A stretch of DNA of 4,727 nucleotides. It comes from Escherichia coli. GTDB taxonomy: Bacteria > Pseudomonadota > Gammaproteobacteria > Enterobacterales > Enterobacteriaceae. This document shows positions 59-4,203 of the stretch, one piece after another. The notes beneath the pieces are model-generated. The model was not told where the DNA came from, searched no databases, and worked only from the letters and a program-made list of their open reading frames with translations. The stretch lies in assembly GCF_011045215.1 (NCBI RefSeq), contig NZ_CP049203.1, one strand, 5' to 3'. How positions within the stretch are numbered: the first letter of the stretch is position 1; every line of letters starts with the position of its first letter. Position numbers and translations under genes: made by a program.

Positions 59-808
59 TTAACGCTTATCTCGCAACTGCGCAGCTGTATCTTTATTTCT
101 CTGATCACCTCTTTGATGTAAATTTCGATGGCTCTCTTGTGCAGCCGTCTCCCAGTCACCACGATTAACTGCAGCATTGAAATTAGGAAAATCTTTAGAT
201 AACTTAGGGATACCTAAATTAAACCCCATGTCAACCAACGCTGTTTTCCTTGAATTAGAAAAACCATCATAACCAGAATACAAAGAACGCAATCCCTTCT
301 CTGTCACTTGAACATCACTAATACATAAACCGATAACAGCATTATTTGATAAATGTAAGTTCATAGGAACTTGTCTAGAATCTTTTTTAAAATTATTAAA
401 CGCCTCTGTAATTTCCTCTTTAGATGCGGAAACCTCTTTTTCCATATCATCACCATGAGCATGCCATGTATGTGTTCTTGAAAATGGAAGGGATGCAGCC
501 ATATCAGGCGTAGATAGTAAATGACCGATTCCAACAGTAATATTTCCCTCACTGTCTTTGTACATTGTGTTTTTAAAACCTTCATGAGATTTCAAATTAT
601 TAACACACATAGTCATATAAAAACCATCATAACTCCTAGTGGAGGAAATATTTATGTGTGTCTTATCAGAAATGCCCTCATGACTATTCCCTCCAGAGTG
701 TCCACCATAGCTACTATGATTATCACCATCATAACTATGAATCGTGCCATAAGGGGTATCATGATCGTGCCATCCCGGACCTTGATTAGAACTTTCAATA
801 CCGCTCAT
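59..808 (-). CDS. T4-type lysozyme (GH24 muramidase) domain protein with Gly/Ser/His-rich N-terminal extension, 249 aa; candidate SOS-inducible cell-wall-degrading bacteriocin
   Basis: Long ORF in AT-rich DNA. Start set at ATG 808-806 (Met31 of the 279-aa track ORF) because AGAGGA lies 8 nt upstream and the earlier Met codons are upstream of the LexA box; stop TAA at 61-59. Residues ~85-249 align by eye with T4 lysozyme: SHEGFKNTMYKDSEGNITVGIGHLL vs T4L [25 protein letters not shown], with Glu, Asp and Thr at T4L-equivalent spacing (E11/D20/T26); C-terminal RKTALVDMGFNLG and DWETAAQ match T4L RRAAINMVFQMG and WDEAAV. Confidence 0.85.
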   Translation of the reverse strand: MSGIESSNQGPGWHDHDTPYGTIHSYDGDNHSSYGGHSGGNSHEGISDKTHINISSTRSYDGFYMTMCVNNLKSHEGFKNTMYKDSEGNITVGIGHLLSTPDMAASLPFSRTHTWHAHGDDMEKEVSASKEEITEAFNNFKKDSRQVPMNLHLSNNAVIGLCISDVQVTEKGLRSLYSGYDGFSNSRKTALVDMGFNLGIPKLSKDFPNFNAAVNRGDWETAAQESHRNLHQRGDQRNKDTAAQLRDKR

Positions 809-1582: not shown

Positions 1583-1832
1583 GCGTATGGCGGAAAAACG
1601 TAAATTTTGCCACCTGAAATAATTCTAATGCACTGATTCCAAAGAGAAATCATGCAAAACGCAGTTTTGCGACAGGTGTGGTGACAGCAGGTCAGAGAAG
1701 GGGCGGATTCAGATATGAATCCGGGCCAGATCCGGGCATTAAGGGGTTCCCGGAAACATGAATAAGATTGCCAGTGCACGGGGATTTTTAATCCCCTGCC
1801 CCGTTGAGCCGCTCCACGGCGAAAAGGGGAAA

Positions 1833-1852
1833 GTAAAGTTAGCTAACTTTAC
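1833..1852. repeat. Perfect 20-bp palindrome gtaaagttagctaactttac; candidate operator or minus-strand terminator hairpin
   Basis: Self-complementary over all 20 bp. On the minus strand it is followed directly by TTTCCCCTTTTC and lies about 130 nt downstream of the stop of ORF 1981-2226. Confidence 0.5.
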
Positions 1853-1980
1853 ATGTCCTGCCCGGCGTTCACCGGTGTTTATGGCGGGGAACTGAACCAC
1901 CGGACGGGTGGAAACATGTGTATTCCTGTGTGCCCCTGTGTAATCCGGTGGATTTGTGTGTGCAAAATTCCGTAGCCGGT

Positions 1981-2891: not shown

Positions 2892-3086
2892 GTGAACAAA
2901 CAGCAACAGACCGCGCTCAACATGGCGCGATTCATCAAAAGCCAGAGCCTGACATTACTCGGGAAACTTGACGCTCTGGACGCCGACGAACAGGCCACCC
3001 TGTGCGAACGGCTACACGAACTGGCGGAAGAACTCTGTGACAGCGTACAGACGCACTTTGAGGCGCAGTACAGCACGGAACCATAA
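2892..3086 (+). CDS. rop: Rop/Rom, RNA I-RNA II pairing modulator of ColE1-type replicons (64 aa, GTG start)
   Basis: MNKQQQTALNMARFIKSQSLTLLGKLDALDADEQATLCERLHELAEELC aligns along its length with pMB1/pBR322 Rop (MTKQEKTALNMARFIRSQTLTLLEKLNELDADEQADICESLHDHADELY, from memory). It is oriented toward the origin as in pBR322. Stop TAA at 3084-3086; GGAGA/GGGAGA precedes the GTG. Confidence 0.9.
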   Translation: MNKQQQTALNMARFIKSQSLTLLGKLDALDADEQATLCERLHELAEELCDSVQTHFEAQYSTEP

Positions 3087-3796
3087 CAGGGGCTGGCGAA
3101 AGCGGTCGCGGCTCGTCCGTGAGCGTTTTCGCCAGCAGACAAGCCCGGAGAGCGCGTCAGGACATGGGCTGAGAGAAACACCGGCGCGTAAGTGCTCAAA
3201 TCAGACTGGCGGAGACATTCCGCTTCCTCGCCCACTCGCTCACTACGTTCGGTCGCTGGGGCTGCGGCGAGCGGTGACGGCTCTCTCATAACGGCGGACA
3301 GTTTATCCACAGAATCGGGGGATAAGCCGGACAGAACATGTGAGCAAAAAGCACGAACAAAAAGGCCGCGGCGGGGCCGTTTTTCCATAGGCTCCGCCTC
3401 CCCCTGGCGAGCTTCACACTTTTCGAAGCTGCAAGCCTAGGATTTGACGAAACCCGATGTGGCTTCAAGATCATCACCGTTTCCGGTGAATCGCTCCCCC
3501 CTGCGACCTCCACATTCCCGCCATATCGTTTGCCGGATACCTTACCGCCTTTCCCCTTGCGGGACCGTGGCGCTTTCTCATAGCTCACGTGCATCTCTGC
3601 GGTATCTCGGGCGACTTAGGCAGTTCGCTCCAGGTCTGGCTGTATGCAGGACCCCCCCTTTCAGCCTGACTGCTGCGCCTGTTCCGGTAACTGTTCTCTT
3701 GAGGCCAACCCGGAAAGACACGCCTTAACGCCACTGGCAGCAGCCACTGGTAACTGGATTTGCAGAGCGAGATGTATACAGATGGTTACAGAGTTC

Positions 3797-3825
3797 TTGA
3801 GTAACAGCCCTCTTATGGCTACACT
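3797..3825 (+). promoter_or_regulatory. RNA I promoter (-35 TTGAGT, 17-bp spacer, -10 TACACT)
   Basis: Positionally equivalent to the pBR322 RNA I promoter (TTGAAG-N17-TACACT), with the transcript start about 7 nt downstream. Confidence 0.6.
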
Positions 3826-3831
3826 AGAGGG

Positions 3832-3940
3832 ACAGTTTTTAGGTAATCTGCGCTCTGCGATAGCCAGTTACCATTGGAACAATGAGAAGGTGAGATGTCT
3901 CATCGCTCCCGGAAAAAACCGCCTTACGGCGGTTTTTTCC
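3832..3940 (+). ncRNA. RNA I (antisense replication inhibitor)
   Basis: Begins ACAGTTTTTAGGTAATCTGCGCTCTGC (pMB1 RNA I begins ACAGTATTTGGTATCTGCGCTCTGC) and ends in the hairpin plus U-tract aaaaaaccgcc-ttac-ggcggtttttt (3913-3936). About 108 nt, antisense to the 5' end of RNA II. Confidence 0.8.
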
Positions 3941-3953
3941 GTTTACAAGCCGA

Positions 3954-3982
3954 AGATTACGCGCAGCGGCAAAGGATCTCAA
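3954..3982 (-). promoter_or_regulatory. RNA II promoter (-35 TTGAGA, 17-bp spacer, -10 TAATCT)
   Basis: Minus strand reads TTGAGA-tcctttgccgctgcgcg-TAATCT-tcggctt-G. The hexamers are identical to the pBR322 RNA II promoter. Confidence 0.7.
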
Positions 3983-4203
3983 GAGGATCTTTTGCGATCC
4001 GCCTGAAACTCATCACCGTAATTCCGTCTGTGGAATAAACGCAACCTTTTGCACATTATCGGTTAAATCATAACGAATTTGCATATACAACTGCGGTTCA
4101 AAGCCAGTAAACTGGGGGGCGAAGCCCAACCGTTACCAGCTTTGGTGACGTAATTTCCTGAAGTTCCAGCGTAGAACACCAGTTACCAAAAAACGAACAC
4201 AAC

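Follow-up and report, generated by a model that had tools for sequence, protein, structure and literature searches.

A recombinant RNA I/RNA II control module that probably sets its own compatibility type in a small ColE1-type plasmid of Escherichia coli

The stretch of E. coli DNA analyzed here (the window, 4,727 bases in full) looks like an entire small bacteriocin plasmid of the ColE1 type, and its replication region aligns with those of ColE1 and pMB1 at 75-76% identity across ~800 nt. The elements of this region, together with the downstream regulator gene, are as follows.

2892-3086, plus strand: rop, encoding 64 amino acids (Pfam PF01815, 107 bits)
3379-3390, minus strand: origin, RNA-to-DNA transition region, with GTTTTTCCATAG on the plus strand (placed by alignment)
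3381-3946, minus strand: RNA II primer precursor, ~565 nt (placed by homology to the ColE1/pMB1 origin region)
3797-3802, plus strand: RNA I promoter -35 box, TTGAGT (assigned from its alignment to ColE1 and pMB1)
3820-3825, plus strand: RNA I promoter -10 box, TACACT, after a 17-nt spacer (same as ColE1/pMB1)
3832-3943, plus strand: RNA I, the predicted antisense repressor, ~112 nt (both ends assigned by homology to RNA I of ColE1)
3954-3959, minus strand: RNA II promoter -10 box, TAATCT (same as ColE1/pMB1)
3977-3982, minus strand: RNA II promoter -35 box, TTGAGA, with a 17-nt spacer (same as ColE1/pMB1)

Homology places the RNA II start site at 3946 on the minus strand, where the transcript begins GUAAACGGAAAAAACC, and its far end at the conserved origin motif CTATGGAAAAAC. 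The transition-region sequence GTTTTTCCATAG is invariant in alignments of the window, ColE1, pMB1 and their relatives, and the origin motif GTTTTTCCATAGGCTCCGCC and two C/G runs are likewise conserved with ColE1/pMB1; the C runs are elements implicated in RNA II-DNA hybrid formation in ColE1. The RNA II start site lies ~565 nt from this origin with its G-run and C-run elements, in keeping with the spacing of ~550 nt expected of a ColE1-type replicon, and a Rop protein is present while a Rep initiator is absent among the open reading frames scanned: no Rep domain was found by Pfam and NCBIfam in any of four window ORFs, and the three other than rop have either a phage lysozyme domain or no family assignment. 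ColE1 and pMB1 have the same layout, with RNA I and RNA II promoters that converge, an RNA I of ~110 nt made up of a free 5' tail and three hairpins, an RNA II of ~560 nt whose end lies at the conserved origin motif, and a rop gene further downstream; p15A, NTP16 and CloDF13 share the three-hairpin antisense design. The control region belongs to an already known kind, and the known mechanism is unchanged.

The Rop protein is readily recognized, with matches to Rop entries in the PDB down to 1.5e-27 (wild-type Rop, 1rop, at 2.6e-17). It is 57% identical to Rop of ColE1, 92% to that of pRHB06-C19_4 and 54% to that of p28NP3, two plasmids described below. When identities to ColE1 Rop are counted on the alignment, residues 1-32, with the N-terminal helix, reach 75% and residues 33-63 only 39%, in agreement with an earlier reading of the DNA letters (hereafter the sequence-only reading), which had noticed a different C-terminal half. 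The protein retains Lys3, Asn10, Phe14, Gln18 and Lys25 in alignment with ColE1 Rop, which we take to be the RNA-binding residues. Because Rop recognizes the shape of the kissing complex and not its sequence, it is not expected to act as a specificity determinant.

Both promoters are called by homology only. A generic sigma-70 scan of 3600-4100 returned no sites; such a scan misses the RNA I and RNA II promoters because they match the consensus weakly. The sequence-only reading had delimited the control region as 3797-3982 and described its promoter hexamers as conserved. The span is exact, since its two ends are the first bases of the RNA I promoter -35 box (plus strand) and of the RNA II promoter -35 box (minus strand), and the string quoted from the RNA I body is present in the sequence. 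Conservation extends to both boxes of the RNA II promoter and to the -10 box of the RNA I promoter, but not to the -35 box of the latter, where two bases are changed relative to ColE1/pMB1 (TTGAAG to TTGAGT).

RNA I is predicted to form three stem-loops, preceded by a single-stranded 5' tail of 10 nt.

3842-3872, plus strand: stem-loop I, with loop CUGCGAU at 3855-3861 (predicted fold)
3876-3909, plus strand: stem-loop II, here type X, a 12-bp stem with the 10-nt loop AGGUGAGAUG at 3888-3897
3910-3941, plus strand: stem-loop III, the RNA I terminator, a perfect 14-bp stem with tetraloop UUAC at 3924-3927, followed by a U run

This three-hairpin fold has a predicted energy of -45.7 kcal/mol (z = -5.8 vs shuffles), and the complementary RNA II leader forms a mirror set of hairpins at -53.2 kcal/mol (z = -8.4 vs shuffles). 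The Rfam RNAI model (RF00106) matches end to end at 3835-3942 on the plus strand (E = 4.3e-6), so that a full-length family match and three-hairpin folds on both strands are found together, as in ColE1-type replicons, and covariation backs stem-loops II and III. The match scores 44.7 bits, which is below the Rfam gathering score of 47 bits, and the whole family to which the window belongs scores 44.7-45.5 bits on this model, compared with 49-83 for its relatives. The low score arises because an A is inserted in stem-loop I and because stem-loop II is atypical; it is a limit of the model and not evidence against homology.

At two positions in the stem of stem-loop II, RNA I has A.C where RNA II has G.U, which leaves the RNA II version of the hairpin strong, at -16.7 kcal/mol. 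For RNA I, folding puts the canonical form at -8.0 kcal/mol and a small alternative AUGU hairpin at -9.0 kcal/mol, and with a rival within 1 kcal/mol it is uncertain from the folding model which loop II RNA I presents. A second form of this hairpin, type Y, is carried by pRHB06-C19_4, pSCU-171-3 and contig L067, and comparison with it favors the canonical long stem: between types X and Y, seven of the 12 base pairs are changed on both sides and still pair. The terminator architecture had been described as conserved, and it is: as elsewhere in the family, a U run comes directly after the stem, here of 14 bp. Loop III varies among relatives (UUAC, GUAA, GCAA and ACAA), and the UUAC of the window reads as a GNRA-type GUAA in RNA II. 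Because it presents a 4-nt loop on a 14-bp stem, stem-loop III is probably mainly a terminator, with loops I and II the effective determinants.

What is said here of the transcripts, of loop kissing and of the phenotype is carried over by analogy from the ColE1 paradigm of RNA I/RNA II control, as summarized in PMC8683028. By this analogy, RNA II would be transcribed from 3946 on the minus strand toward the origin near 3380 and there be processed into the replication primer. RNA I (3832-3943, plus strand), the exact complement of the first ~112 nt of RNA II, would engage the nascent RNA II through kissing contacts between its hairpin loops and their complementary loops, after which its free 5' tail would nucleate and zip up the full duplex, and RNA II would refold so that no primer is formed. 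Rop (2892-3086) would stabilize the kissing complex of the two RNAs. Specificity would be expected to lie in loops I and II, and as one DNA encodes both the inhibitor and its target, the swap of a cassette should change specificity in a single step and leave regulation intact.

The RNA I of the window was compared with those of five reference replicons using pairwise alignments and a subfamily alignment (A4). ColE1 (NC_001371) and CloDF13 (NC_002119) were used directly, and NTP16 (L091) represented the RSF1030 type; a presumed RSF1030 sequence matched NTP16 and pOSAK1 at 97.9%, and NTP16 therefore served as its stand-in. The references for pMB1 and p15A were the genome-assembly contigs L042, L018 and L044, which we take to be pBR322, pUC or pACYC184 sequence. 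Identity to the window RNA I and the sequences of loops I, II and III are given below.

Window: loops CUGCGAU, AGGUGAGAUG and UUAC
ColE1: 74% identity; loops CUGCUGA, UUGGUAG and UUGGUAG
pMB1: 74% identity; loops CUGCUGA, UUGGUAG and CUGGUAG
p15A: 71% identity; loops CCUCCA, UUGGUAG and CUGCAA
NTP16 (RSF1030-type): 70% identity; loops CCUCCA, UUGGUAG and UUGGUAG
CloDF13: 66% identity; loops CUGCGAA, CCCC and CCCC

The proposal that RNA I had diverged from that of pMB1 is borne out by these alignments, with 88 of 119 aligned columns matching (74%) and all three loops different. Across the five references identity ranges from 66 to 74%, each of the three window loops differs from its counterpart in every one of them, and the loop set of the folded RNA I is identical to that of none. 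The RNA I sequences of ColE1 and pMB1, by comparison, are a single base apart in the references used here. Relative to ColE1, three of the seven bases of loop I are different; where the window has a 12-bp stem with a 10-nt loop at stem-loop II, ColE1 has a UUGGUAG hairpin, and its loop III is again UUGGUAG as opposed to a 4-nt loop. The closest single loop is loop I of CloDF13, which is one base off (CUGCGAA vs CUGCGAU), and loops II and III of the window are unrelated to those of any of the five references. The window thus lacks the near-identical loops that would place it in the pMB1/ColE1 incompatibility group, and has no loop set in common with the p15A, RSF1030 or CloDF13 groups. The p15A and RSF1030-type RNAs share loop II (UUGGUAG) with ColE1; RSF1030 is compatible with both ColE1 and p15A.

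The isolate plasmid whose replicon body is closest to that of the window is pRHB06-C19_4 (CP057986), from E. coli in sheep faeces. It also has a long stem-loop II with a 10-nt loop beginning AGGU, but this hairpin is of type Y, and its loop I is CUGCAAC and its loop III GCAA. Individual hairpins of the window recur elsewhere. Stem-loop II is found base for base in p28NP3 (CP152068), a pesticin plasmid of Salmonella diarizonae, and in pFF1043_1 (NZ_CP077817) of K. pneumoniae, both of which differ from the window in stem-loop I and loop III; the origin region of p28NP3 is 80.5% identical to the window overall. Stem-loop I, including CUGCGAU, is identical in the E. coli colicin K plasmid pSCU-171-3 (NZ_CP054366), which even keeps the extra A-U pair of the window (in the stretch beginning AGGUAAUCUG) and differs in having a type Y stem-loop II and the loop III ACAA, with an RNA I that is 76.6% identical overall. 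The PLSDB records of pRHB06-C19_4 and p28NP3 give no MOB-suite replicon type. We also considered whether the plasmid cargo has kinship with pesticin plasmids, given the stem-loop II common to p28NP3, and rejected this idea: the lysozyme-domain protein of the window resembles pesticin only remotely (E = 0.012), and for the putative immunity protein no similarity was found.

When the window is aligned with pRHB06-C19_4, the similarity ends abruptly, and a segment that appears to have been swapped can be delimited.

3803-4000, unstranded: swapped control cassette, relative to pRHB06-C19_4 (alignment)

Mismatches occupy five of 422 columns in 3381-3802 and 66 of 199 in 3803-4000 (Fisher p = 1.5e-30); in other words, 98.8% identity up to 3802 gives way to 33% divergence. 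Broken down into segments, the window and pRHB06-C19_4 agree at 99% of positions in the RNA II body, 83% in the 5' tail and stem-loop I, 35% in stem-loop II, 85% in stem-loop III and 62% in the RNA II promoter. The stem-loop II segment is nevertheless 97-100% identical in p28NP3 (97%), pFF1043_1 of Klebsiella and the contigs L005, L006 and L010, the last three being identical to the window throughout stem-loop II. The comparisons indicate that the module was built by recombination between co-circulating ColE1-like plasmids and not by gradual drift, with a body like that of pRHB06-C19_4, a stem-loop I as in pSCU-171-3 and a stem-loop II as in p28NP3 and pFF1043_1. Divergence from pMB1, as the sequence-only reading put it, is therefore real and at the same time an understatement, as the region is a recombinant cassette and not a drifted copy of pMB1.

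The distribution of hairpins across relatives points the same way. With loop I scored as GAU or AAC and stem-loop II as X or Y, all four combinations are found: GAU with X in the window, GAU with Y in pSCU-171-3, AAC with X in L006 and AAC with Y in pRHB06-C19_4. A four-gamete test on the 73 distinct RNA I sequences gathered here, with hairpin apexes as alleles, gave five quartets for stem-loops I and II, 19 for I and III, and none for II and III; when exact whole hairpins are used as alleles the same test gives zero quartets, trivial differences then splitting the alleles. Another mixed case is p1303_5, whose stem-loop I is that of Enterobacter, Tatumella and Kluyvera contigs (L023, L034 and L038) and whose stem-loops II and III are those of the Yersinia pestis contigs L049/L050, presumably pPCP1.

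Accelerated point mutation in place, driven by diversifying selection and without any recombination, would be expected to concentrate changes where new specificities arise, and the closest variants of the window do vary chiefly in loops I and III. It would not readily produce a step from 1.2% to 33% divergence between positions 3802 and 3803, nor a stem-loop II that is 35% identical to an otherwise 99% identical relative and matches at 100% in plasmids whose origin bodies are more distant, and the four-gamete pattern also holds against it; we regard this explanation as very unlikely. Recombination is thus the preferred origin of the cassette, and a broader proposal may be built on it, which we offer tentatively and with slightly more reservation than conviction: that new compatibility types of ColE1-like plasmids come about chiefly when plasmids in the same cell reassort whole RNA I hairpins, and not through point mutation, with stem-loop I swapped freely against a linked block of stem-loops II and III and a few loop bases then fine-tuned, the window being one such recombinant. 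A literature search turned up no specific earlier account of hairpins being shuffled in the RNA I of ColE1, which is no proof of novelty.

Fine-scale variation was assessed in the variants that carry the same stem-loop II, a small sample of five distinct RNA I sequences picked by exact match to that hairpin. They have 10 variable columns, six of which fall within the 11 nt of loops I and III (Fisher p = 3e-5) and two of which form a compensatory pair in stem III; loop II is invariant among them because the search selected for an exact stem-loop II. In L007, L009 and L011, loop III is GUAA, the exact reverse complement of the UUAC of the window. Such a flip would be the expected product of loop inversion within a perfect palindromic stem, and it would switch which of the two transcripts bears the GNRA-type loop.

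The RNA I of the window is rare among sequenced isolates. No match of at least 90% was found among 72,556 PLSDB plasmids, ~3,600 of which match the control region and the best of which over the full length of RNA I is p28NP3 (85.8%), and no match of at least 90% was found in 5,426 complete E. coli genomes from RefSeq. A metagenome search recovered the exact stem-loop II in eight contigs. In one of these, the food-metagenome contig L012, RNA I and the control region are both 100% identical to the window, and in L007, L009 and L011 they are 98% and 99% identical, respectively; L007 and L009 are the same plasmid type across most of the window. L012, L007 and L009 are complete plasmid-sized contigs, and L011 is a 1.4-kb fragment. 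The RNA I type has thus been recovered independently in four metagenome assemblies, and the sequence is real and circulating. As judged from these searches, its combination of three hairpins is new relative to the classic laboratory replicons and the isolate plasmids covered. The contigs L005 and L006 carry orphan copies of a related RNA I gene that have no adjoining origin body.

The sub-threshold Rfam score, the A.C mismatches in stem-loop II of RNA I and the existence of such orphan genes could together be taken to mean that the control region is decayed or chimeric, either an assembly artefact or part of a dying replicon that has lost regulation of replication. Recovery of the sequence in four independent metagenome assemblies speaks against an artefact of this kind, and the replicon has kept its promoters, terminator, origin and rop intact. 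The mismatches, moreover, are G.U pairs in RNA II, and the same hairpin is present in the isolate plasmids p28NP3 and pFF1043_1. We consider decay highly improbable, the least likely of the explanations weighed here.

Recognition in this system is loop to loop, and the loop set of the window matches no reference; for this reason its RNA I should inhibit pMB1/ColE1, p15A, RSF1030-type and CloDF13 replicons poorly, and their RNA I should likewise be a poor inhibitor of this one. Poor mutual inhibition would imply a separate compatibility type. ColE1 and p15A belong to different incompatibility groups, and single point mutations in RNA I can change incompatibility (PMC9458437); ColE1 plasmids that share a cell have differences at key positions of these RNAs (PMC8683028). 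Measured on the scale of the ColE1/p15A split and of these point-mutation effects, the RNA I of the window lies, by sequence, well outside the pMB1 group. Compatibility is a phenotype, however, and loop divergence alone is an unreliable predictor of it (PMC9458437), so that a separate type is something we infer. The distinct specificity proposed by the sequence-only reading is, with respect to pMB1, well supported in silico although not proven, and the replicon of the window probably defines a compatibility type of its own.

The module might instead be functional and yet have no separate type, if residual similarity lets its RNA I cross-inhibit a known replicon. Several elements are indeed shared, namely the stem of stem-loop I, the 5' tail, a loop I (CUGCGAU) one base from that of CloDF13 (CUGCGAA; ColE1 has CUGCUGA), and whole hairpins of other plasmids, with the same stem-loop I in pSCU-171-3 and the same stem-loop II in p28NP3 and pFF1043_1. 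Against pMB1, ColE1, p15A and the RSF1030 type, however, three of three loops differ; p15A has the full loop II of ColE1 and still belongs to another incompatibility group; and with CloDF13, loops II and III of the window have nothing in common. We therefore think it unlikely that cross-inhibition denies the replicon a type of its own, and partial cross-inhibition is possible with plasmids that share a hairpin or a near loop (pSCU-171-3, plasmids of the p28NP3 type, and CloDF13 through its loop I). Taken as a whole, 3797-3982 is probably the module through which antisense RNA controls copy number and incompatibility in a ColE1-type replicon, RNA-primed and Rep-independent, with its own specificity and of recombinant origin.

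The window offers a natural origin of the ColE1 type with a control RNA unlike those of standard vector origins, and this origin is a candidate for an additional compatible origin in multi-plasmid work. That potential use, the clean modular exchange of hairpins and the Rfam score that is below threshold across the family each add to its interest. Given that this family falls under the Rfam threshold and that two of its closest isolate relatives, pRHB06-C19_4 and p28NP3, are untyped by MOB-suite, such replicons may escape routine annotation and typing. Should hairpin reassortment prove general, typing would be better based on RNA I hairpin 'alleles' than on whole-origin similarity, and natural hairpins could supply ready parts from which to build orthogonal origins. 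The abrupt recombination boundary, together with the hairpins common to other plasmids, is an example of how plasmids may evade incompatibility, and the route of escape appears to be the swapping of a self-contained module in which inhibitor and target are encoded on the same DNA.

Across the 73 RNA I variants drawn from the compared loci (L001-L095), most ColE1-like sequences carry an identical motif in loops II and III. The pairs sharing a common motif include UUGGUAG/UUGGUAG, UCCCCA/UCCCCA and UUGCCGG/UUGCCGG, as well as CUGCAAG/CUGCAAG, CGCCAA/CGCCAA and GCCUGAGAA/GCCUGAGAA. When the hairpin apexes of these 73 variants were scored for reassortment, no four-gamete combinations of loops II and III were found, in contrast to stem-loop I, which reassorts freely. 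The lineage of the window departs from the shared motif in loops II and III, comprising stem-loop II type X (the window, p28NP3 and pFF1043_1) and type Y (pRHB06-C19_4, pSCU-171-3 and L067).

Within this lineage, loop III (window 3924-3927) reads UUAC in the window and in the food-metagenome contig L012, and GUAA in the metagenome contigs L007, L009 and L011. GUAA is the exact reverse complement of UUAC, and the remainder of RNA I is 98% identical, a pattern consistent with the two forms having been interchanged by inversion of loop III inside its perfect 14-bp palindromic stem.

Related RNA I genes, each with an RNA II promoter, were also located on three larger contigs:

L005, about 1241-1492: orphan RNA I gene with RNA II promoter
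L006 (58-kb contig), about 7738-7959: orphan RNA I gene with RNA II promoter
L008: orphan RNA I gene with RNA II promoter

These are orphan copies, with no RNA II body or origin adjoining the RNA I gene in any of the three. Possible sources are remnants of integration, chimeric assembly, or another replicon that carries them as incompatibility determinants. The scan of genome contigs (L013-L090) also returned, in many non-enterobacterial assemblies (Streptomyces, a Nitrospira MAG, Pseudoflavonifractor, Methylobacterium and others), short contigs whose origin sequence we take to be that of pUC, pBR322 or pACYC184, and which are probably vector contamination.

The traJ-II cis-regulatory RNA model of Rfam (threshold 40 bits) scores above threshold in two contigs related to the window but below it in the window itself:

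Window 1791-1855, minus strand: traJ-II match, 29.5 bits, sub-threshold
L012 3831-3913: traJ-II match, 49.1 bits
L010 4489-4572: traJ-II match, 44.1 bits

At about 1110-1140 the minus strand carries GGTGCGTACAATTAAGGGATTATGGTAAAT, a candidate cer-type XerC/XerD dimer-resolution core resembling that of ColE1 cer. Between 1360 and 1600, motifs such as CAGCACCGT, ACAGTGCC and ATCCAGC(C/A)AC are densely repeated in direct and inverted orientation; the sole match there, to an Rfam microRNA, is spurious.

Two reading frames of the window probably concern bacteriocin production:

62-808, minus strand: 249-aa protein with a phage-lysozyme domain (Pfam, 1.1e-9)
4204-4683, minus strand: 159-aa ORF with a hydrophobic N-terminus

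The 249-aa protein has an N-terminus rich in His, Gly and Ser, and a LexA-box-like CTGTGTTTATATACAG lies upstream of its gene at about 853-868. The protein appears to be a lysozyme-type bacteriocin induced by the SOS response; its similarity to pesticin is only remote. Homologs with 87.6% amino acid identity, annotated as 'hypothetical protein', occur on E. coli plasmids of ~4.67 kb such as p1303_5, which also possesses a lysis gene, none being seen in the window. The 159-aa ORF, which has no family match in Pfam or NCBIfam and a counterpart in p1303_5 with 68% nucleotide identity, is probably the immunity protein of this lysozyme-type bacteriocin.
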